A DNA stretch of 64,000 nucleotides from an uncultured Ectothiorhodospiraceae bacterium (GTDB lineage Bacteria > Pseudomonadota > Gammaproteobacteria > XJ16 > Halofilaceae), in NCBI GenBank assembly GCA_964478305.1, contig CAYZHJ010000003.1:4364-68363 (forward strand), in the 5' to 3' direction. Shown piece by piece: positions 9,623-56,069 of the stretch; positions within the stretch are counted from its first letter, which is position 1, and each line of letters opens with the position of its first letter. Below the pieces are notes generated by a model. The model worked only from the letters and a program-made list of their open reading frames with translations. It had not been told where the DNA came from and searched no databases. Position numbers and translations under genes: made by a program.

Positions 9623-9687
9623 CGTGGTCATTCCGCCGCCGGGCGGGCGTGCTGCGCATCCCCGCCGGGGTGCGACACGGGCAGGGC

Positions 9688-10151
9688 AGAATGAATCTCG
9701 CAGAGTTCGCGGAGAACGCATAGAAGGGAATGGTTGTGGTGGAGGCCGGAACGCGAGCATGGCGTTCCGTCTGGCTCGTGCCTGTCGGCTTCCGGTACCT
9801 TTTGCGGATCATCAGTACCTTGTGTGGCCCGCGCATGGCGAGACCGCTGATGAGCAATGATCACCGACGGCACCGAACGCACCGAAGACACCGAAAGGGC
9901 CGATCGGACTGGACGGGATCGGACCGGTCCACGAGCTCCGCCCGCACCGGCCGTGCGTCGTTCGTTCGCGACTGACGTCGCTCCCACAATCGTCCTTTCA
10001 GTGCATTCGGTGTGTTCGGTGTTCCGCTATTTCCCGGTGCTCCTGAACATCCGGGTGCGGGAGTGAACACCTGCATGAGATGGCGAAGAGCCGCAATTGT
10101 TTTCATTCACGCGAACTCTGCGTACTCTGCGGTCTCTGCGAGATTCATTCT
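9688..10151. repeat. Nested inverted-repeat element A (outer CGCAGAG arms, inner CACCGAA arms, REP copy in the core)
   Basis: 9688-9723 matches the reverse complement of 10116-10151 at 31/36; 9862-9898 pairs with 9994-10026; REP-like GTGGGAGCGACGTCAGTCGCGA on the minus strand at 9966-9987. Confidence 0.85.
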
Positions 10152-10180
10152 TCCAGCGTCTTCGCGGGGCACCATTGCAG

Positions 10181-28760: not shown

Positions 28761-28770
28761 TCAAGAGTCC

Positions 28771-28844
28771 GCAGGTTGGGCCGACGCAGGAGGCTCAACT
28801 GTTCCGAACGCTGGGGTTGGGCCTCCTGCGTCGGCCCAACCTAC
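28771..28844. repeat. GTAG-family REP doublet (REPIN)
   Basis: GCAGGTTGGGCCGACGCAGGAGGCTCAAC...GTTGGGCCTCCTGCGTCGGCCCAACCTAC; near-identical copy at 37366-37446. Confidence 0.85.
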
Positions 28845-28848
28845 GCGT

Positions 28849-36304: not shown

Positions 36305-37369
36305 ATGGCCAGCTACAGCAGCAATGAAGGTGAAGCGCCCGGCTTCGTGCAGGTCGGGCCACGGGTTACGGCATCGATCGACTGGAATGCCGACGGCAAG
36401 CAGCATGGCTATCTCAGTGCGCCGTATTCCGCCAATGAATCGGCCTGGGGCGCCGTGCGCGTGCCCATCACCGTCATTCGCAACGGCGAGGGTCCGAGCA
36501 TCATGTTCACCGGTGGCAATCACGGTGACGAATACGAGGGCCCGATTGCCCTGAAGAAGCTGGCGGCGGAGATCGAGCCCGAGGATATCAATGGCATGGT
36601 GATCATGATCCCGGCACTCAATCCGCCGGCCGTGCTGACCAACACCCGTTGCTCTCCGCTTGATGGCGTCAACATGAACCGCGCCTTCCCGGGCAGGCGT
36701 ACCGGGACCGTCACCGAAATGCTCTGTCACTACGTATCGACCGTGCTGTTGCCGAAGGTCGAGGCCGTGATCGACATTCACTCGGGCGGCAAGACCCTCA
36801 ACTTCGTGCCGTTCGCGGCGATGCACTATCTCAAGGACCGCGAGCAGTTCGAGCGTACGCGGGCGGTGGTCGAGGCGTTCGATGCACCGATTTCGCTGAT
36901 CATCGAGGAACTCGATACCGAGGGCATGATTGATGGCGTGGTCGAGGATTCCGGCAAGGTGTTCATGTTCACCGAGCTCGGCGGCGGCGGTACCTGCACG
37001 CCGGAGAGCGTGGCGATTGCCGAGCAGGGCGTATGCAATGTGCTGCGGCACTACGGCGTGCTGGAGGGCACGCCGTCGCGCCGCCGGGACCGCGGCCTGC
37101 CGTCGAGCCGGATCATGGCGACGCCGGACGAGAACGCGTACACCGTTGCGGACGAGACCGGCCTGTTCGAGTGCCTGGTCAATCTCGGCGACGAGATCAC
37201 CGAGGGGCAACTCATCGCACGCATCCACTCGGTCGAGAAGACCGGCCTGGAGCCGGGGCTCTACTACGCCAATCGCAGCGGTACCCTGATCGGGCGGCAT
37301 TTTCCCGGCCTGGCCCGTCCCGGCGATTGTCTTGCCATTATCGGGATAGAGCAGGAACGCCTCGAGTAG
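36305..37369 (+). CDS. doeB: DoeB/EutE-like N-acetyl-diaminobutyrate deacetylase (succinylglutamate desuccinylase/aspartoacylase family)
   Basis: 'GKQHGYL...SAWGAVRVPITVIRNGEGP...GGNHGDEYEGPIAL', 'NMNRAFPG', 'DIHSGGKTLNFVPF', 'TELGGGG'. Confidence 0.75.
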   Translation: MASYSSNEGEAPGFVQVGPRVTASIDWNADGKQHGYLSAPYSANESAWGAVRVPITVIRNGEGPSIMFTGGNHGDEYEGPIALKKLAAEIEPEDINGMVIMIPALNPPAVLTNTRCSPLDGVNMNRAFPGRRTGTVTEMLCHYVSTVLLPKVEAVIDIHSGGKTLNFVPFAAMHYLKDREQFERTRAVVEAFDAPISLIIEELDTEGMIDGVVEDSGKVFMFTELGGGGTCTPESVAIAEQGVCNVLRHYGVLEGTPSRRRDRGLPSSRIMATPDENAYTVADETGLFECLVNLGDEITEGQLIARIHSVEKTGLEPGLYYANRSGTLIGRHFPGLARPGDCLAIIGIEQERLE

Positions 37370-37446
37370 GTTGGGCCGACGCAGGAGGCCCAACATTCCG
37401 CGTTCGGGAGCCGGTCGTTGGGTCTCCTTGCGTCGGCCCAACCTAC
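37366..37446. repeat. GTAG-family REP doublet (REPIN)
   Basis: GTAGGTTGGGCCGACGCAGGAGGCCCAAC...GTTGGGTCTCCTTGCGTCGGCCCAACCTAC between convergent genes. Confidence 0.85.
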
Positions 37447-45373: not shown

Positions 45374-45445
45374 TGCGGGTTCTCCCTTCGAACTGTCTTT
45401 CTTGTCATGGCTGGCCGAATTCTTTTCGGGTATGTGCGATGGACA

Positions 45446-45546
45446 TCTCGCAGAGGCCGCAGAGAACGCGGAGAAAAACGCAGGAATTCACTTTGTTTTC
45501 CTTTGCGTACTCTGCGTTGTCTGCGGCCTCTGCGAGAGATTCATTC
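45446..45546. repeat. Inverted-repeat element B (CGCAGAG 9-bp periodic arms)
   Basis: 45446-45472 matches the reverse complement of 45511-45537 at 25/27; terminal GATTCATTC shared with element A. Confidence 0.85.
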
Positions 45547-45560
45547 ATGAAGACCCCCGC

Positions 45561-47015
<1,455 letters not shown>

Positions 47016-47037: not shown

Positions 47038-47338
47038 GAACCACGAATGAACACGAATCAACACGAATGCTGCCGGGACCATTCCGAACGCATGTCGGAG
47101 CAGCGCTGACAGGACCGTGCTTTTCCGAGCGTTTTCCGATAACCGGAAAATGGACTAAAAATGGTCCGGCGTCATGGTAATGCGATGAACGAAGCCCTTT
47201 CCCATTTTTAGTCCAATTTTTGTTCATTTTTGGTTATCAGCATCCCTGCAACATGCCCAGACGGTATCAGTGCAGCTCCAGCGAGCTTTCTGCATCGACA
47301 TGACAATATTCGTGTTGATTGGTGTTCATTCGTGGTTC
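47038..47338. repeat. Nested inverted-repeat element C (three layers)
   Basis: Outer CACGAAT arms 47038-47068 / 47308-47338 (30/31); middle GGAGCWGCRCTGA pair; inner AAAATGGACT arms 47138-47164 / 47202-47238. Confidence 0.88.
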
Positions 47339-47351
47339 TTCTTTGCCGGTT

Positions 47352-48647
47352 TCAGATATCCAGCAGCAGACGTGCCGGGTCCTCGAGGAGTTGCTTGATC
47401 GCGACCAGGAACTGCACCGAATCCTTGCCGTCGACGATGCGATGGTCGTACGACAATGCCAGATACATCATGGGCCGGATCACGACCTGGCCGTTCTCGG
47501 CCACCGGCCGCTCCTGGATCTTGTGCATGCCGAGAATCGCGCTCTGCGGCATGTTCAGGATCGGCGTCGACACGAGCGAGCCGAACACGCCGCCGTTGGT
47601 GATGGTGAAGGTGCCGCCGGTCATCTCGTCGATGCCGATCTTTCCTTCCTGCGCACGTCCGCCGAAGTCACGGATCTGACGCTCGATCTCGGCCATCGAC
47701 AGGGTTTCGGCATCGCGCAGGATCGGCACGACCAGTCCGCGCTCGGATGACACGGCAATGCCGACATCGCAGTAGCCGTGATAGACGATGTCGGTTCCGT
47801 CGATCGAGGCATTGATGTCGGGGAAGCGCTTGAGCGCTTCGGCGGCCGCCGTGACGAAGAAGCTCATGAAGCCCAGTTTCGTGCCGTGGGTCTTCTCGAA
47901 CTGGTCCTTGTAGCGTGCGCGCAGATCCATGATCGGCTGCATGTTGACCTCGTTGAACGTGGTCAGCATGGCGGTCTGCTGAGTCGCCTGCAGCAGCCGT
48001 TCCGCAATGCGCGCGCGCAGGCGCGTCATCGGCACGCGCTTCTCGGGCCGGTCACCGCTGTCGAAGCCCACGCCGGCCTTCTCCGCCGTTTCCGCCGGCG
48101 ACGGCGTCTTGCTTTCCGGTTCCGGCGCCGCTGCGGCCTCTTCTCCCGCCGGTTTCTTCTCTTCCGGTTTCGATGTCTCCGTCCTGTCGGCCTTCTCGAT
48201 GTGCCTGAGCACATCTTCCTTGGTAATGCGGCCGTTCTTGCCGCTGCCATCGATCGCAGAGGCGTCCAGGCCGTGTTCCGAAATCAGCTTGCGCGCCGCC
48301 GGGCCCATCTTCGCTTCGTCGCCGCCCGCATCGTCGACTGCTCCTGCCTTCGTCTCCGCCGCGGATTCGGTTTCCGCCTTTTCTTCTCCGCCGCCGGTAT
48401 CCGCGGAAGCCCCCTCGGCCACGCGCCCCAGCACGGCGTCGGCGGTCACCACCGCACCTTCGGCCTCGAGGATCTCCTCGAGCACGCCGTCGGCGGGTGC
48501 GGGCACCTCGAGCACCACCTTGTCCGTTTCCAGTTCGACCAGGACTTCGTCACGCTTGACGCTGTCGCCCTTCTTCTTGGACCAGCCCGCCACCGTGGCA
48601 TCGGACACGGATTCGGGCAGTTGCGGAACAGTGATGTCTGTGCTCAT
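47352..48647 (-). CDS. sucB: 2-oxoglutarate dehydrogenase E2 (dihydrolipoyl succinyltransferase)
   Basis: Lipoyl '[12 protein letters not shown]', '[13 protein letters not shown]', '[13 protein letters not shown]'. Confidence 0.98.
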
Positions 48648-48688
48648 GCGTACCTTCCTCTATTCGCGAGTGACCGCGACTTGGTTCT

Positions 48689-51544
48689 TCATGATGTCTG
48701 TTCGAGATCGAGTGCGTCGGCAACGAGTTCTGCCTGTTGCCGGGCATGGCGGCTGAAGTAGCCCACCGCCGGTGAAGCGGAGGCCGGACGGCCGGCAAAG
48801 CGCAGCTGTCCCTCGCCGACCACCCGTTCCAGGCGGTGGCGCATGTTGTACCAGGCGCCCTGGTTGCGCGGTTCCTCCTGGCACCAGATGTATTCCTTGC
48901 CGTTGACGTACGGTTCGAGTACATCGCGCAGCGCATCGTAGGGGAACGGGTAGAGCTGTTCGATACGAACGAGCGCGATGTCGTCGATCTCCTGTTCACG
49001 GCGCCTGGTCAGCAGATCGTAGTAGACCTTGCCGCTGCACATGACGACACGTCGGACCTTCTTCGGATCAAGCTCGTCGATTTCCCCGATCACGGTGTGG
49101 AAATGTCCTCCGGACAGATCCTCGATGGCCGAGGTGGCCATCTTGTGACGCAGCAGGCTCTTCGGAGTCATCACGATCAACGGCTTGCGATAGGGCCGCA
49201 ACATCTGTCGCCGGATCATGTGAAAGGCCTGTGCGGGTGTCGTCGGCATGCACACCTGGATGTTGTAATCGCCGCGCTGGTGCTCGGCACACATCTGCAG
49301 GAAACGTTCGAGCCGGGCCGATGAGTGCTCCGGACCCTGGCCCTCGTAGCCATGCGGCAGGAACAGGGTCAGGCCGCACAGTCGACCCCACTTGGCTTCA
49401 CCCGAGGTGATGAACTGATCGATCACCACCTGCGCGCCATTGGCGAAGTCTCCGAACTGCGCCTCCCAGATCACGAGCGTGTGCGGATCCGCGGTGGCAT
49501 AGCCGTACTCGAACGCCATCACCGCTTCCTCGGACAGCAGCGAGTCGATCACGAGGAAGTTGGCCTGGTCCTCGGCCACGTTGCGCAGCGGCACATGGCT
49601 GCTGCCGTCCTTCTGGTTGTGCAGCACGACATGCCGATGGAAGAAGGTGCCGCGGCCGGAGTCCTGGCCGGTCAGGCGTACGGCGTAGCCCTCGGTGACC
49701 AGCGAGGCATAGGCCATGGTCTCGGCGTAGCCCCAGTCGATACCGAGAGCGCCGGCGGTCATCTTGCGCCGGTCGTCCATGATCTTCGCAACGCGCTTGT
49801 GCAGTTCCATGCCTTCCGGCAACTGCTCCAGTCGATTCCACAACTCCTTGAGCCGTTCGGCCGGGACCGTGGTATCGACCGGGTCATCCCAACGGGCGCC
49901 GATGAAGGGACTCCAGTCAACCGTGAATTCGTTGACGAAGTCCTTGTCGGTGATGATCTTCGGCGTGACCGTGTCCCCGGCATCCATGTGGTCGCGGTAT
50001 TGCTGTGCCATGCGATCGGCGTCGTCGCTCGTCACGATCTTCTCGTCGATCAGCCGCTTCGCATACAGCTCCCGCGTGGTGGGCAGGCTCTTGATCTTCT
50101 GGTACATCATCGGCTGGGTCGCCGCAGGCTCATCGGCTTCGTTGTGGCCGTGACGGCGATAACAGACGAGATCGATCACGACGTCCTTGTGAAACTGGTT
50201 GCGGTAGTCCAGCGCGATCTGCGTGACCAGCAGTACCGCCTCCGGATCGTCGCCGTTCACGTGAAAGATCGGCGCATTGACCATCTTGGCGACATCGGTG
50301 CAGTACAGCGACGAGCGCGTGTCCAGCTTGTTGCTGGTGGTGAAGCCGATCTGGTTGTTGATCACCACGTGGACCGTACCCTTGGTGGAGAAGCCCCGCG
50401 CGTGCGACAGCGCGAACGTCTCCATGACCACGCCCTGGCCGGCCATCGCGGCGTCGCCGTGGATCGAGATCGGCAGTACCTTGTTGCCCACGCGATCCTC
50501 GTGGCGGTCCTGGCGCGAACGGGTCGAGCCCTCGATCACCGGCGAGACGATCTCGAGGTGCGAGGGATTGAAGCCGAGCGCCAGATGGACCACGCCCTCG
50601 CTGGTCATGTAGTCGGACGAGAAGCCCTGGTGGTATTTCACGTCGCCGGCGGGCAGCGAATCGTCATCGTAGCCCTCGAATTCCTGGAACAGGTCGGCCG
50701 GTTTCTTGCCGAGGATGTTGACCAGCACGTTGAGCCGGCCCCGGTGGGCCATGCCCAGCACGATCTCGCGGGCACCCTGCTCGCCGGCGCGTTCTATGGT
50801 TTCGTTGATCAGCGGGATCAGGGATTCTCCACCCTCCAGCGAGAAGCGTTTCTGGCCGACGTACTTCGAGTGCATGTAGCGCTCGATGCCCTCGGCGGCG
50901 GTCAGGCGTTCCAGCAGCCACTTGCGCTTCTCCGGGGACAGCTCCGGGCTGGACTGGGGTGTTTCCAGACGGTTCTGCAGCCAGCGCTTTTCCGCGGTGT
51001 CGGCAATGTGCATGTACTCCGCGCCGATCGAACCGCAGTACGTGCGCTGGAGAATGTCGAGGATCTCGCGCAGCGGCGCCTCGTCCACGCCGTGCAGCGA
51101 GCCGGTGTTGAACGCCGTGTCCAGATCCGCGCTGCTGAGTTCGTGGGCCTCGAGCTTGAGCTCGTCGATCTCCGGGAGTTCCCACCGGTCGAGGGGATCC
51201 ACCTTGGCGTGGCGATGGCCGCGGAAACGATAGGCGTTGATGAGCTGGAGCACCCGGATCTGCTTGCGCTCGTGCTCGGCGCTGCGCGACTCCGCCGGCG
51301 CCATGCGGGCCAGGCTGCCCTGCGAGTGAAAACGGTAGAACTGGGCCCGGATCCGCGACGGCGGAATGTCCGGGCTGCTCACGCCGTCGACCTGCGGCAG
51401 CCGGTCGAAGTAGCGCCGCCACTCCGGGGGCACGCCGGCCGGATCGCGCAGGTAGGCTTCGTAGAGCTCCTCGAGGTAATCGACATTCCCTCCGTCGAGC
51501 ATCGAGGTGCTCCAGAGGGCCTTCATGGTGGATTGCTCACTCAT
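48689..51544 (-). CDS. sucA: 2-oxoglutarate dehydrogenase E1
   Basis: 'GQKRFSLEGGE', 'GMAHRGRLNVL', 'HGDAAMAGQG', 'WEAQFGDFANGAQ', 'GQGPEHSSAR'. Confidence 0.98.
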   Translation of the reverse strand: MSEQSTMKALWSTSMLDGGNVDYLEELYEAYLRDPAGVPPEWRRYFDRLPQVDGVSSPDIPPSRIRAQFYRFHSQGSLARMAPAESRSAEHERKQIRVLQLINAYRFRGHRHAKVDPLDRWELPEIDELKLEAHELSSADLDTAFNTGSLHGVDEAPLREILDILQRTYCGSIGAEYMHIADTAEKRWLQNRLETPQSSPELSPEKRKWLLERLTAAEGIERYMHSKYVGQKRFSLEGGESLIPLINETIERAGEQGAREIVLGMAHRGRLNVLVNILGKKPADLFQEFEGYDDDSLPAGDVKYHQGFSSDYMTSEGVVHLALGFNPSHLEIVSPVIEGSTRSRQDRHEDRVGNKVLPISIHGDAAMAGQGVVMETFALSHARGFSTKGTVHVVINNQIGFTTSNKLDTRSSLYCTDVAKMVNAPIFHVNGDDPEAVLLVTQIALDYRNQFHKDVVIDLVCYRRHGHNEADEPAATQPMMYQKIKSLPTTRELYAKRLIDEKIVTSDDADRMAQQYRDHMDAGDTVTPKIITDKDFVNEFTVDWSPFIGARWDDPVDTTVPAERLKELWNRLEQLPEGMELHKRVAKIMDDRRKMTAGALGIDWGYAETMAYASLVTEGYAVRLTGQDSGRGTFFHRHVVLHNQKDGSSHVPLRNVAEDQANFLVIDSLLSEEAVMAFEYGYATADPHTLVIWEAQFGDFANGAQVVIDQFITSGEAKWGRLCGLTLFLPHGYEGQGPEHSSARLERFLQMCAEHQRGDYNIQVCMPTTPAQAFHMIRRQMLRPYRKPLIVMTPKSLLRHKMATSAIEDLSGGHFHTVIGEIDELDPKKVRRVVMCSGKVYYDLLTRRREQEIDDIALVRIEQLYPFPYDALRDVLEPYVNGKEYIWCQEEPRNQGAWYNMRHRLERVVGEGQLRFAGRPASASPAVGYFSRHARQQAELVADALDLEQTS

Positions 51545-51905
51545 GATCACGGACCGTGGCAAGTGGATCGAGGAAATCGGCGGGCACGCGGAGCACGCAA
51601 CCGCACGACGACGTGGCCGCCGGTGGAATGAGGGTCGCAGGAAGAAACCCCCGACGATTGTGGTCGGCTGGGAACAAGTGCCTGTTCACGCAGAGCGGTC
51701 GATGCCGGATGTTCGTGCGGTGCGGGCGACCCTGGCGCGCGACCGCGAGCAATGTACGTTATTGAATCGTGTCACGTGCCCGATTGCAAGGCGGAGCGGT
51801 GGATTCCGCCGGCAATGGCGGTATTTTCTTCGACCGGATGGTCGGCCAGGCAGCAAATTGTCCTGACAAAGCGCCCAGCGCCCAGCGCCAGGTAGAACGG
51901 AGGTT

Positions 51906-52062
51906 GCAGGTCGGACTTCAGTCCCGCGTTGCGTGTGGCGCAGACACGCATATCAGGCGCGAGCGGAGCGAGCACGACTTCCCTGCCGGAAACGGGCAGG
52001 GCGCATCAGGATCCTGTCGAGGCAGTGCCGGCGTTGAGCTGTCGCACTGAAGTGCGACCTAC
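51906..52062. repeat. GTAG-family REP pair of a second class
   Basis: GCAGGTCGGACTTCAGTCCC (51906-51925) and inverted GTAGGTCGCACTTCAGTGCGACA (52040-52062, minus strand). Confidence 0.7.
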
Positions 52063-52121
52063 AACTTTCGCTTTGCCTTGACCATCGAATCGAAGCCGCC
52101 CATCCTTGCGCCGGGCGCCCG

Positions 52122-52370
52122 TCACTTCTGATGTTTCTCCTTCCACTCCGCGTACGGCATCCCGTAGACAATCTCCCGGGCCTGCTCGTAATCCAGCTCG
52201 ACACCGCGTTCCTCGGCGGCCGCGCGGTACCATTTCGACAGGCAGTTGCGGCAGAAGCCGGCCAGGTTCATCAGGTCGATGTTCTGCACGTCGGTACGCT
52301 CTCGCAGGTGGCCGACCAGGCGGCGGTAGGCGGCGGCCTCGATCTCGATACGGGTCTGCTCGTCCATCAT
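52122..52370 (-). CDS. DUF1244 family protein
   Basis: 'EAAAYRRLVGHLRERTDVQNIDLMNLAGFCRNCLSKWY...YGMPYAEWK'. Confidence 0.9.
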   Translation of the reverse strand: MMDEQTRIEIEAAAYRRLVGHLRERTDVQNIDLMNLAGFCRNCLSKWYRAAAEERGVELDYEQAREIVYGMPYAEWKEKHQK

Positions 52371-52453
52371 CTCTCCTGCAATCATTGCCGTGGGGTGGCA
52401 TGTTGACCGCTCCCATTATAGGTTTCGGCCCGTCATCCGCGCAGCGAGTTCCC

Positions 52454-52792
52454 ATGACCCAGATTATCGCCATGCTGCTGCTCGCTGCCCTCGGCTGGTG
52501 GTGGTGGGATTCGATGCAGGCACGCGAGGTCGCGGTTGCCGCCGCGCGGCGCGCCTGCCGGACGTTTTCCACCCAGCTTCTCGATGACAGTGTGGTGTTG
52601 CGCCGCATCCGCCCCCGCCGCGATCCCGGCGGGTCGTTCCGGCTGTTGCGCATGTACACGTTCGAATTCACCCGGGAGGGTGACGAGCGGCACACTGGCT
52701 ATGCCTCGGTACTGGGGCGGCGCGTGCTTGACGTCCATCTCGATGACGTGGACGGCGAGGTGCCGCCGCCGCCCGACCGGACGCTGCATTGA
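52454..52792 (+). CDS. DUF3301 family protein
   Basis: N-terminal TM helix; 'ARRAC...QLLDDSV...YTFEFTREGDERHTG'. Confidence 0.85.
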   Translation: MTQIIAMLLLAALGWWWWDSMQAREVAVAAARRACRTFSTQLLDDSVVLRRIRPRRDPGGSFRLLRMYTFEFTREGDERHTGYASVLGRRVLDVHLDDVDGEVPPPPDRTLH

Positions 52793-52810
52793 AGGCGCCA
52801 TCACGGAGCA

Positions 52811-53314
52811 ATGTCCATGTCTGATTGTCCCTGCGGTTCCGGCAAACCCGTTGCCGCATGCTGTGGCCGCTACATCGACGAGGGCGTCGCGCCGCCGACG
52901 GCCGAGGCACTCATGCGGGCACGCTATACGGCGCACACCCGTGTCGATCTCGACTTCGTGGTGCGAACGCACGATCCCGCCGGCCGTGAGGAGATCGACC
53001 GCGAGGCCACCCGCCGCTGGGCCGAACGCGCGCACTGGCTCGGGCTCGAGATTCTCGATGTGCAGGCGGGCGGCCCGGACGATACGGCCGGCACGGTGGA
53101 ATTCGTGGCCCACTACCGCGAGCGCGGCGAGCGCCGGCGGCATCACGAGGTGGCGCAATTCCGCCGCGGCGAGGACGGCAACTGGCTGTTCGTCGATGGT
53201 CGCGCCCCCGAGCAGACTACCGTGCAGCGACGCGGTCCCCGGGTGGGGCGCAACGATCCTTGTCCCTGCGGCAGCGGTCGCAAGTACAAGAAATGCTGTG
53301 GTGCCTCCGGTTGA
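52811..53314 (+). CDS. YchJ family protein with SEC-C motifs
   Basis: 'CPCGSG...CC', '[12 protein letters not shown]', 'WLFVDG', '[19 protein letters not shown]'. Confidence 0.92.
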
Positions 53315-53324
53315 CACAGGTCAA
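53311..53324. promoter_or_regulatory. FNR/Anr-type binding site upstream of the USP gene
   Basis: Palindrome TTGAC-ACAG-GTCAA ending 56 bp before the USP start codon. Confidence 0.6.
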
Positions 53325-53380
53325 GGAGTGTCCGGCCGGGATGACGCATCCTGTCCGGGACATTCAATCGGAGAACCACA

Positions 53381-53863
53381 ATGTTCAAGCAGATCCTGGT
53401 ACCGGTGGACGGTTCCGAACACGCCGAAAGGGCCCTGGCGCTGGCCGCCGACCTGGCTGCGCGTTATGACGCGAAGCTGCACGTGGTCCACGCCCTGCTG
53501 CGGGGCGACGTGCCCGACCATCTCCGCAAGCTGTCGGACAAGAAGGCCGATCCCGAGCCGGGTATCGCCCTCGGCGGCGCCTACGTCGATGCCTCCCTGC
53601 CGTTCGAGGTGCTGGAAGACATCGCCGGGAAGCTGCTCGAGCAGGCCCGCAAGACCGCCGAGAAGCACGGCGCGAAACAGGTGGACACGAGTTCGCACCA
53701 GGGTGATCCCGCCCGGGTCATCCTCGAACAGGCAGACAAGCAGGGCGCGGATCTGGTGGTCATGGGTTCGCGTGGGCTCAGTGACATCAAGGGGCTGGTC
53801 ATCGGCAGCGTGTCGCACAAGGTCGCTCATCTGTTCGAGGGCAGCGTCGTCACCGTCAAGTAG
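53381..53863 (+). CDS. Universal stress protein
   Basis: 'MFKQILVPVDGSEHA', 'ADLVVMGSRGLS...IGSVSHKV'. Confidence 0.95.
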   Translation: MFKQILVPVDGSEHAERALALAADLAARYDAKLHVVHALLRGDVPDHLRKLSDKKADPEPGIALGGAYVDASLPFEVLEDIAGKLLEQARKTAEKHGAKQVDTSSHQGDPARVILEQADKQGADLVVMGSRGLSDIKGLVIGSVSHKVAHLFEGSVVTVK

Positions 53864-53885
53864 GACGGCCTCCGCTCCGGCGCAC

Positions 53886-54662
53886 TCATCGGGCGCCGCC
53901 GCCGTAGACGTCGAATCGCGTCGAGCGGCCCTCGATGGTGCCGCTGGGTGGCGGTCCGGCGAGTGGCTCGGCGCCGCGCGGAAGCTTGACCACCACCCGG
54001 CGGGTGGCTGCCGGCAGTGCGGCCGCGAGCAGTGCGGCGGCATCCGGATCGTCTCCCACCAGCCGGCGCAGGACGCGCATTTCCTTCTTCACCGCTGCCT
54101 CCTTGCGTCGCGGCGGGTGCATCGGATCGACCAGCACGACCGCGGCCCGGGCCGTTGCCAGGACCTCGACGGCATCGGCGACGAGCAGGTGCATCCGCTG
54201 CACGATCGGCCGGGTCCGCTCGTCGTCCAGCGCGCGCGCCAGTCCGTCGCGCAACAGCGCCGCGACCACGGGCTGGCGCTCGATCAGTGTCACCTCGCAG
54301 CCGAGCGCGGCCAGCACGAAGGCATCCCGGCCCAGTCCGGCAGTGGCGTCGATGACATCCGGCGGTGATCCCGCTCGCACACCGGCGGCGCGGGCCAGTG
54401 CCTCGTCGCGCGGCAGCGCATGCCGCCCGCGCCAGCCGGCCCGTCCGCCGACGAAATCGGCGAATACCGGACCGGGCGCATCGGACCCGGACGGCTGCAA
54501 TTCCAGCCGCCGTCCCGTCAACCGCAACACCAGCCAGCCGGCTTCCTCCGGCTCCCTCTCCTGCAACCCGAGCCCGAGCTCATCGGCCAGCGCCACGGCC
54601 TCCGCCGTCCGCCCGGCATCGGTACAGACGAGCACGACCGGGGTGACGGGGGGTTCGTTCAT
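53886..54662 (-). CDS. rsmJ: 16S rRNA m2G1516 methyltransferase (YhiQ)
   Basis: 'VIDATAGLGRDAFVLA', 'DPMHP', 'VKKEM', 'RRVVVKLP', 'RFDVY'. Confidence 0.92.
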   Translation of the reverse strand: MNEPPVTPVVLVCTDAGRTAEAVALADELGLGLQEREPEEAGWLVLRLTGRRLELQPSGSDAPGPVFADFVGGRAGWRGRHALPRDEALARAAGVRAGSPPDVIDATAGLGRDAFVLAALGCEVTLIERQPVVAALLRDGLARALDDERTRPIVQRMHLLVADAVEVLATARAAVVLVDPMHPPRRKEAAVKKEMRVLRRLVGDDPDAAALLAAALPAATRRVVVKLPRGAEPLAGPPPSGTIEGRSTRFDVYGGGAR

Positions 54663-54693
54663 TCGATACCGGCCTTGCGGGCAAGGGAAGAAG

Positions 54694-55070
54694 AGGAACC
54701 ACGAATGAACACGAATACACACGAATGCTGCCGCCTGGTGACGGAAGCCGTGTCGGAGCTGCGCTGACGGCCCATTTTCTGCTGGAACGCAACATGAAGA
54801 ACCACGGATGAACACAGATAAACACAGATGAATGCGAGTGATGCCCACAGACGCGGGGCGTGCTCATAGTTTCCGTGACTGCAACTGAATCGTGTGGGTC
54901 GTTTACCCAACTTCAGTTCGTAACAAGTGTTTTTCTTATCTGTGTCCATCCGTGTTCATCTGTGGTTCCCTTCAAAACTGAACACGAGTACAACCCATCA
55001 GCGCAGCTCCGGCACGCTGCAATTCATGCGCGGCAGCATTCGTGTGTATTCGTGTCCATTCGTGGTTCCT
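54694..55070. repeat. Nested inverted-repeat element D (three layers)
   Basis: Outer arms 54694-54734 / 55030-55070 (40/41); middle 54749-54770 / 54995-55016 (20/22); inner CACAGAT arms 54799-54829 / 54938-54968 (27/31). Confidence 0.9.
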
Positions 55071-55103
55071 GTCCTTGTCTGGAGCCCCGCTGTCGCACCT
55101 CAC

Positions 55104-56069
55104 TCAGGCAACCACGTTGCGCGGCTTGCCCGCGTGCCAGGCGCGGATGTTGGCTGCCACCTGCTCGACCAGGCGCTGGCGGGCCGCCTGCGTGGCCCAG
55201 GCGGTATGCGGGGTGACGATCAGGTTGGGGATGCCGGGTTCGAGCAGGACGTTGCCGTTGCGCGGCGGTTCCCCGGTCAGCACGTCGAAACCGGCACCGG
55301 CGATCTCGCCCGCGCGGAGGGCGTCCGCCAGCGCCGGCTCGTCGACGATGCCGCCGCGGGCGGTGTTGATCAGGAAGGCCGTGGATTTCATTCGCCGCAG
55401 CTCGTCCGCGCCGATCAGGCCGCGGGTTTCGTCGGTGAGGGGGCAATGCAGCGATATCGCGTCGGCCCGTTCGAGCAGCTCGTCGAAGGCGATCCGTCCT
55501 TCCCGCGCCGGTGCGCCACGACGGGCGGCAACGAGGACCTCCATGCCGAGCACGCGGGCAACACCGGCCACGCCCCGGCCCAGCTCGCCATGACCGACGA
55601 TGCCGAGCGTGCGGCCGGCGAGCTCCGTGATCGGCTCGTCCAGCACGCAGAAAAAGGGGTGTGCCGCCCAGCGTCCGTCGCGTGCGGCTGCGTGGTAATG
55701 CTCCAGCCGGGTCGCCAGTGCCAGCAGCAGGGCGAACACGTGCTGTACGACCGCCGGCGTGGCATAGCCGGTGGCGTTGCAGACGGTAACATCATGTGCG
55801 GCCGCGGCCTCGAGATCGATGTTGTTGACGCCGGTGGCGGCGACGCAGATCAGGCGCAATGCGGAAGCGGCACCGATGGTGTCGGCATCGATCGGAACCT
55901 TGTTGCTCACCGCCACCTCGACTCCGGCGAGTCGTTCCGGCACCTGTTCCGGATTCGTGTTGTCGTGCCACGTCCAGTCGCCGGCGGCCTCGCGCAGTGT
56001 CGAGAAATCGAGATCGGGGCCCAGCGAACCGGTATCGAGAAAGCAGGCGCGGGCGGGTCGGGTACTCAT
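55104..56069 (-). CDS. D-2-hydroxyacid dehydrogenase (glycerate dehydrogenase/hydroxypyruvate reductase-like)
   Basis: 'ATGVNNID', 'GHGELG', 'SLHCPLT', 'INTARGGIVDE', 'TPHTAW'. Confidence 0.92.
   Translation of the reverse strand: MSTRPARACFLDTGSLGPDLDFSTLREAAGDWTWHDNTNPEQVPERLAGVEVAVSNKVPIDADTIGAASALRLICVAATGVNNIDLEAAAAHDVTVCNATGYATPAVVQHVFALLLALATRLEHYHAAARDGRWAAHPFFCVLDEPITELAGRTLGIVGHGELGRGVAGVARVLGMEVLVAARRGAPAREGRIAFDELLERADAISLHCPLTDETRGLIGADELRRMKSTAFLINTARGGIVDEPALADALRAGEIAGAGFDVLTGEPPRNGNVLLEPGIPNLIVTPHTAWATQAARQRLVEQVAANIRAWHAGKPRNVVA

Follow-up and report, generated by a model that had tools for sequence, protein, structure and literature searches.

Two nested inverted repeats, which we call elements C and D, lie in spacers between protein genes in a 64,000-nucleotide stretch of DNA (the window) from an uncultured Ectothiorhodospiraceae bacterium. 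We think that C and D probably belong to a family of gene-less derivatives of cassettes in which a gene for a GxxExxY nuclease sits between periodic inverted arms. Its amplification would have been confined to part of one genus, with arm-to-arm copying keeping each locus homogeneous and conversion or re-insertion doing the same between loci. The members themselves are likely to spread and be rewritten as DNA and not to serve as RNA-processed carriers of cargo. The host assembly (G000; genomes, contigs and loci carry our own G, C and L numbers) is 3.15 Mb long and 91.6% complete, and the window is G000:C3:4364-68363.

The spacers of C and D share a 38-nt start that reads GAACCACGAATGAACACGAAT..ACACGAATGCTGCCG, an exact 17-nt gap and then TGTCGGAGCWGCGCTGAC (motif L). 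Their outer arms match their partners at 30/31 positions in C (47038/47338) and 40/41 in D (54694/55070), locus-specific bases included. Both the common scaffold and the arm matching had been described in a first-pass annotation of the window, and the letters bear them out. That annotation also took both layers to be mirrored, which holds for the outer arms, whereas the layer-2 mirror is imperfect in C (GGAGCAGCGCTG on the left versus CAGTGCAGCTCC on the right). The parts and neighbouring genes are as follows (window positions).

47038..47338: element C, a complete nested inverted repeat of 301 nt, 13 nt past the sucB stop and 34 nt ahead of the lpd start
47038..47068, plus strand: outer left arm of C, a 31-nt A arm of three decamers (GAACC-ACGAAT type)
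47093..47110, plus strand: left motif L of C (layer 2), with core 47097-47108 GGAGCAGCGCTG, off the AGC-TNC-GCT consensus
47138..47164, plus strand: inner left arm of C, a K version (11-nt period) of the same arm grammar, two units
47202..47238, minus strand: inner right K arm of C, three units
47268..47279, minus strand: right motif L core of C, CAGTGCAGCTCC on the plus strand, one stem change
47308..47338, minus strand: outer right arm of C, 30/31 complementary to the left arm
54694..55070: element D, a complete nested inverted repeat, 373 nt from arm to arm (54696-55068)
54696..54726, plus strand: outer left A arm of D; pairing extends through GCTGCCGC to 54734
54751..54768, plus strand: left motif L of D, with core 54755-54766 GGAGCTGCGCTG (GCGCAGC on the other strand)
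54799..54829, plus strand: inner left A arm of D, CACAGAT/CACGGAT word
54938..54968, minus strand: inner right A arm of D
54999..55010, minus strand: right motif L core of D, CAGCGCAGCTCC on the plus strand
55038..55068, minus strand: outer right A arm of D
47352..48647, minus strand: sucB, upstream of C in the mRNA (TIGR01347, over cut-off)
45561..47003, minus strand: lpd, downstream of C (TIGR01350, over cut-off)
55104..56069, minus strand: 2-hydroxyacid dehydrogenase gene, upstream of D in the mRNA (NF005069, over cut-off)
53886..54662, minus strand: gene for an RsmJ-like methyltransferase, downstream of D (NF008012, E 2.6e-60, below the curated cut-off)

Profile matches confirmed the identities of these four genes. 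All four have minus-strand orientation, so that in the mRNA C stands between sucB and lpd, in that order, and D between the 2-hydroxyacid dehydrogenase gene and rsmJ; D begins 35 nt past the dehydrogenase stop and ends 33 nt ahead of the rsmJ start.

The building unit is a module of about 103 nt, composed of a 31-nt arm, about 25 nt, motif L and about 33 nt, and stacked once or twice at each end. Nested arms are spaced 88 to 106 nt apart (52 measurements), mostly 99 to 106, or ten less where the arm has two units, and the next arm nearly always begins 29 to 36 nt past L, whatever its type. The K arm of C has the grammar AACC-Nn-ATG-RAC-Nn-ATG, like the A arm, although its period is 11 nt; it can be aligned with D's inner arm. 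C7 and C22 have an intermediate arm form, similar to the arms that a GxxExxY gene has in G003. Given this common grammar, distance and alignment, the third layer belongs to the same arm family. By these sequence measures C and D do not hold different classes of third layer, as had been supposed. In the largest subfamily the inner unit is oriented 12:4 among 16 typed copies.

A motif scan of G000 returned 209 A-arm matches, forming 62 loci with paired arms, of which C and D are two. Their inner content consists of A arms (34 loci), K arms (16, including C) or inserts like repetitive extragenic palindromes (REPs) (5 A elements, with GTAGGTTGGG repeats inside); the other 7 are single pairs. These 62 loci substantiate the proposal of a dispersed modular family that nests, and the scaffold is not restricted to the two sites at which it was first noticed. 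The exact arm pattern has 185 matches in G000, against 0 for a reversed control pattern. Elements measure 140 to 460 nt, the longest paired one being 463 nt, and the closest full-length paralogues are 65 to 93% identical (68% for C and 78% for D, whose paralogue lies at G000:C137:5644-5989).

The arm is largely a feature of part of one genus. Exact matches in 13 genus genomes number 240, 185, 154, 146, 125, 72, 66, 29, 26, 19, 10, 1 and 0, with 0 for the control, and motif L exceeds its own control in 6 of the 13. Within the class, 8 of 301 genomes have the arm; three of these lie outside the genus, with 12 to 27 matches that are mostly bare hairpins of 75 to 90 nt and in one case surround a GxxExxY gene. 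Arm plus L gave 68 genome matches, and the 10 with arm architecture are all Halofilum or Ectothiorhodospiraceae records.

Of 50 G000 elements, 31 have co-directional neighbours, 19 have convergent neighbours and none is in a divergent spacer, compared with 234 divergent cases among 926 spacers of at least 150 nt (p ~5e-7; ~1e-3 against all spacers), in counts that rest on crude gene calls made for this analysis. G011 elements are likewise in divergent spacers in 0 of 50 cases, and all oriented copies sit after a stop codon. On the same crude calls, 13 of the 69 gene ends beside G000 elements have their stop codon within the arm (at positions -13 and -23). With a 10-nt period, TGA/TAA and ATG fall in successive frames, and a purine-rich run of 8 nt that resembles a ribosome-binding site borders each G000 arm on the outside. 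A small peptide starting at the arm ATG was considered and ruled out, because two-unit arms (31 of 151 modules) shift the frame.

The link to nuclease genes comes from full cassettes. G000 has two TIGR04256 (GxxExxY) genes, each between periodic inverted arms, with the arm words CGCAGAG and CACCGAA. GxxExxY genes with CACGAAT, CACGGAT or CACAGAT arms occur in G011, G012, G007 and G001, and the same words surround GxxExxY genes at L046, L042, L044, L047 and L085 and at metagenome loci. Most GxxExxY genes of relatives lie between periodic inverted arms whose word changes jointly on both sides; 24 GxxExxY loci from 61 genomes include orthologous genes at two sites, with a word that varies by species on both sides. 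The first-pass annotation had stated that periodic arms often flank small accessory genes and had named two kinds. The association stands for GxxExxY, and the arms bracket such genes in G000 and its relatives rather than the host REP-associated tyrosine transposase (RAYT); for four-helix-bundle genes it found no support, with no PF05635 match in G000 at 91.6% completeness.

Upstream of a gene starting MLVMIDNYDSF, which we take to be trpG-like, a GxxExxY cassette is found at one conserved site across the genus with an arm word that varies by species (L001, L035, L036, L038, L039, L040, L043, L050 and L051, including two truncated copies). Viral contigs contained 11 GxxExxY genes (L216-L226), some of which have periodic inverted arms. 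No orthologous site was found at which a GxxExxY cassette had decayed directly; in G000 the site that corresponds to the A-armed gene of G011 is rearranged and arm-free. Neither C nor D nor any other paired A element of G000 contains a GxxExxY gene, the most being a 12-nt relic.

Arm words and nuclease proteins share a history. On a tree of 49 GxxExxY proteins, 31 of them with an automatically recovered arm, the AG-ending arm class requires 1 change (support 99/92), versus 7.3 in shuffles, and the AT-ending class requires 6, versus 10.5; the two classes follow the two main protein clades. About 21 of the rows were chosen by arm pattern and kin share labels, so the tree shows co-inheritance, not recognition. 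A structure model of the protein (pLDDT 94.6) has a minimal PD-(D/E)XK fold, and the closest folds among the matches listed are Uma2-like, BpuSI (restriction) and Cas4 nucleases (Z 8.3-8.1; the match at Z 8.3 has a root mean square deviation of 3.4 over 100 aligned). Foldseek gave no match at E<=0.001, TnsA is absent among the matches listed of either fold search, and a PDB sequence search with the GxxExxY profile returned nothing meaningful. PF13366 is tabulated as of unknown function (PMC3424549). Literature searches, which did not cover most subscription journals, found no description of the arm family, and the excerpts naming GxxExxY or PF13366 were silent on arms.

Motif L may hold a trace of the lost gene. 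Read as codons it gives V-G-A-A/S-L, and its core is conserved at 91 to 99%, compared with 30 to 80% at neighbouring spacer positions. When metagenomes were searched for an arm plus IGA(A/S) codons, 21 of 66 distinct matches were GxxExxY genes (80 loci of at least 119); the Ile codon lies 18 to 36 nt past the arm, with a mode of 33, compared with 25 in G000 modules. At L109 the sequence ATC GGA GCT TCG is in frame, and one subfamily reads F-D-E-R-V and is then one base short before G-A-A-L. We put the chances at about even that L derives from the start of a GxxExxY gene (I-G-A-A/S codons), which would have decayed and been copied to each end.

Several observations weigh against descent from GxxExxY cassettes and the copying that we propose. 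Neither GxxExxY gene of G000 bears the exact A-arm word, and gene counts do not track arm counts (2 matches and 0 arms in G006, 1 match and 240 arms in G004). The fold-search matches listed include no transposase, which does not exclude one; the mobilising enzyme stays putative, and the host RAYT has a different flanking repeat. The likeness of L to GxxExxY was recognised in retrospect, and the pattern used for searching itself required matching codons, so that this match is suggestive only; moreover, a dead relic does not explain the conservation of L without homogenisation or a second role. In G011, unlike G000, the second linker of partner arms shows no excess agreement (17/51 versus 16.5). 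No near-identical dispersed full-length copies were found (nearest paralogue 65-93%), for which reason recent transposition is not demonstrated, and the loss of similarity between orthologues described below could in part reflect saturation at about 80 to 85% flank identity.

Partner arms resemble each other more than shuffled pairs do. Their core words agree in 72 of 84 cases in G000 (32 in shuffled pairs), 65 of 70 in G011 (39.8) and 21 of 26 in G004 (13.2), and the second linker agrees in 27 of 51 G000 cases, compared with 17.2 in within-word shuffles (0/5000). Concordance between left and right stops at arm position 31, with no excess beyond it (12 strict pairs); the same comparison in G011 had 6 usable pairs and was uninformative. 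The variable base of L agrees in 19 of 52 pairs, compared with 22.8 in shuffles, so layer 2 does not covary. A co-selected long-range stem in layer 2 was rejected on this result and on the end of concordance at position 31.

Arm-to-arm copying is directly visible in the sequences. At G000:C36:18208-18587 there is a perfect 116-bp inverted repeat, variable spacers included (1 of 83 G000 loci tested), and in G011 the spacers are at least 85% alike at 4 of 58 loci, L202 being the clearest, with one near-perfect inverted repeat of 67 nt. The 116-bp repeat, the alike spacers and the flipped inner units are the products expected if templates switch between inverted repeats. Such switching homogenises inverted repeats in Proteobacteria (PMC5941160; see also PMC8604942). 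Of the earlier suggestion of selection or repair for pairing, the homogenisation of partner arms is borne out, and a selected two-layer hairpin is not supported.

The same concordance could in principle reflect selection on RNA. In that scenario cleavage of the 31-bp stem by an RNase III-type enzyme would split the polycistronic mRNA or make it less stable while the interior drifts, in the manner of 23S rRNA intervening sequences and Correia elements. We regard this as unlikely. RNase III is reported to cleave both the arms of Correia elements (PMC10969869) and the intervening sequence of Coxiella (PMC4990558). The post-stop position of all oriented copies, their absence from divergent spacers (0/50 in both G000 and G011), the restriction of concordance to the 31-nt arm and the joint change of arm words at sucB-lpd in 8 of 11 other genus genomes are all in keeping with an RNA stem. 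On the mRNA strand C folds at -131.5 kcal/mol (z -9.2) and D at -205.1 kcal/mol (z -12.8), with 0 of 100 shuffles as good, and the single outer mismatch of D is a G.U pair. However, arm-to-arm copying yields concordance without selection, and congeners do without arms, with 0 in G006, 1 in G010, none at sucB-lpd in two species and half an arm there in one.

Mismatches on the mRNA strand did not settle in favour of RNA pairing. The G.U:A.C ratio for co-directional elements was 21:9 in G000 (p=0.043), 16:19 in G011 and 4:2 in G004, and for one-sided elements it was 13:10, 14:6 and 5:9, so that the pool of the three genomes (73:55, p=0.13) was not significant. This test left out pairs with >3 mismatches in 21 nt or <100 nt (4/88, 8/78 and 4/30) and sampled 49 regions of G011 and 20 of G004. 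With the bias seen in one G000 subset and unreplicated, a role of the arms in RNA is neither shown nor excluded, and the idea of RNA-level processing gained no support beyond the position of the elements. A scan for promoters and terminators around C found none, and an Rfam scan of the 64-kb window at gathering score gave 0 matches, CRISPR-repeat families included.

The first-pass annotation had proposed comparing orthologous spacers across strains; here they were compared across species. In 8 of the 11 other genus genomes with a complete sucB-lpd spacer, that spacer has paired A arms whose word is the genome's own and whose interiors are unrelated; of the other three, one retains half an arm left by deletion and two have no arms. 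At the D site, 0 of 10 genomes with both flanks hold an A element, and slyX (PF04102) and/or a 162-aa open reading frame (ORF) are present instead (L055-L064). Given that neither has a match in the G000 assembly, D, in the spacer at window 54663-55103, may mark a deletion. Of 50 G011 sites 30 are syntenic, and at these G000 bears A arms in 18 cases, a different repeat in 7 and none in 5; at 15 syntenic G004 sites the figures are 5, 4 and 6. In all 45, A arms are found at 23, another repeat family at 11 and none at 11.

Where elements of G000 and G011 can be compared, orthologues are no closer than other G011 elements. Across 16 comparable sites in G000 and G011 the rank of the orthologue among G011 elements is random (mean 0.47), and the best paralogue within G000 outscores it at 16 of 16; the G004 orthologues of five pairs rank 11, 16, 13, 2 and 1 of 17. 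Intergenic sites persist between species while their occupants turn over, as far as similarity allows this to be read with saturation as a caveat.

No target duplication was found. Among 47 outer elements, abutting repeats of 2 to 9 nt were not above shuffles, the longest word common to both 30-nt flanks averaged 4.57 compared with 4.52 in shuffles, and none reached 7, so the elements do not show the target duplications of a miniature inverted-repeat transposable element (MITE). None was seen by eye at three short G005 sites either. Filled and short versions of a site occur between species, with diverged junctions and, in some cases, half-arm relics. In one sequencing run, compared with another 20-kb stretch that has three elements, no joint that could be interpreted ran across any of them. 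At L195 (G011:C30:257700-262100) two similar adjacent gene ends are each followed by an A element; G005 has short spacers there, and G000:C93 bears elements at both equivalent sites.

Lack of target duplication is also what a REPIN-like unit would show, with L as a single-stranded GCGNAGC mini-hairpin, of the sort described in PMC13037366, mobilised by a RAYT. The complement of this hairpin, AGC-TNC-GCT, is present in 121 of the 151 modules of G000 and in 58 of the 59 of G011, and G000 has four Y1_Tnp matches, one of which is an NF047646 RAYT. We nevertheless find such an origin improbable. Of the 45 L motifs in G004, no more than 20 fit, and the stem is broken by AGGTGCGCT, the most frequent variant there (16 copies); both L motifs of C depart from the consensus. 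The RAYT (G000:C46:7085-7833, L006) is flanked by GTAGGTTGGG repeats, the stretches read of the four Y1_Tnp loci contain no A arms or L, and Y1_Tnp counts do not track arm counts, with such genes in genomes that have few or no arms (G005 and G006). The GTAGGTTGGG repeats and the NF047646 RAYT are an ordinary REPIN/RAYT system. REP-like GTAGGTTGGG doublets also occur in the window, at 28770-28845 and 37363-37446, with 176 matches genome-wide.

The first-pass annotation viewed the scaffold as a dedicated system that captures, nests and exchanges functional small-gene cargo in operon spacers. Variable inner content (A, K, REP-like or none), flipped inner units, occupants that differ between species at shared sites and the existence of complete cassettes with a GxxExxY gene all speak for such a system, but we consider a cargo scaffold very improbable. 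All 36 ORFs of at least 49 aa inside paired G000 elements, none of which exceeds 463 nt, received negative scores from a codon model that had been trained on 11 genes of the window, leaving no coding ORF and no gene within any A-L scaffold of G000. Long A-arm pairs of G000 enclose no accessory gene (two rows on C2 are adjacent elements flanking a host gene), and no A-arm pair there encloses a transposase. Among the 68 genome matches to arm plus L, the sole GxxExxY gene had L as its own codons, not as a flanking layer, and the inner layers consist of additional family arms, set at a constant spacing.

We postulate that the gene-less nested repeats descend from arm-bounded GxxExxY cassettes. Template switching from arm to arm would explain why partner arms match, why layer 2 is mirrored and why inner units are flipped; occupants may turn over through conversion by paralogous copies or because elements re-insert at favoured sites. 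With less confidence, we suggest that the GxxExxY nuclease might start the copying in trans. The long RNA hairpin would be a by-product that may affect mRNA stability. A bolder version, which we consider unlikely, is that GxxExxY cassettes are an undescribed transposase-free form of mobile DNA: the nuclease would cut arm hairpins in trans and drive copying, gene-less composites would repeatedly overwrite fixed post-stop-codon slots in operons, and foldback copying would build the nested mirrored modules.

The family behaves much like a MITE or REPIN yet fails on target duplication and RAYT linkage. It ties GxxExxY, a widespread family of unknown function, to a concrete candidate substrate, the arms. 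What the genus adds is that sites persist while occupants are replaced, and that arm-to-arm copying and inner inversion can be seen in sequence; C and D themselves are ordinary family members. If the nuclease drives copying, this would be a new route of DNA mobility, and if not, a clear case of concerted evolution in a repeat family.

Other arm families are present in the window. A short S-arm hairpin (CGCAGAG type, with about 230 S-arm matches genome-wide) lies between lpd and sucC at 45439-45544, which places two arm families in adjacent spacers of one operon. At 9685-10154 an S arm pair 470 nt apart surrounds a nested CACCGAA-type pair with no recognisable gene; both arm words match the arms of the two GxxExxY genes of G000, and a similar composite lies at G000:C103:8711-9148.

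Several described systems resemble the C/D family in part. Bacterial MITEs, as defined in PMC2229807 and PMC10969869 (Correia/NEMIS, RUP, ERIC and YPAL), are similarly non-coding, multi-copy and intergenic, with terminal inverted repeats, lineage-specific copy number and a stable RNA fold. The C/D family differs from them in having neither fixed nor variable target duplication, no TA ends and no identical copies; its arms are periodic and match nuclease cassettes instead of an insertion sequence, and its nested modules span 140 to 460 nt. Like C and D, REPINs are extragenic inverted pairs that form hairpins, with mosaic and nested forms and with copies that lack a gene and are related to the sequences on either side of a single enzyme gene (PMC3116915). 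Mosaics of bacterial interspersed mosaic elements (BIMEs) are similar in these respects. The arms of C and D, however, differ from GTAG-type REPs and are absent from the flanks of the host RAYT, and the associated gene encodes a PD-(D/E)XK nuclease, not an HUH tyrosine transposase. The arm is periodic and not palindromic, the palindrome being limited to the 9-nt L core.

The 23S rRNA intervening sequence (S23p/four-helix-bundle ORF) encloses a small ORF, which is optional, within a long closing stem, as full GxxExxY cassettes do (PMC4990558), whereas the C/D family lies in mRNA spacers between protein genes and has no ORF. The TAACTGA repeats of Beggiatoaceae are likewise short, periodic, intergenic and of uncertain role; nearly all are direct heptamer sets upstream of start codons, with one inverted set of 170 (PMC4679880), while C and D have inverted decamer or undecamer arms past stop codons. 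Unlike CRISPR and integron arrays, the family consists of dispersed inverted pairs without genes. Compared with arm-bounded GxxExxY cassettes (TIGR04256/PF13366), C and D have no gene, two arm layers and L at both ends, and they share with these cassettes the three-unit arms and the position after a stop codon.

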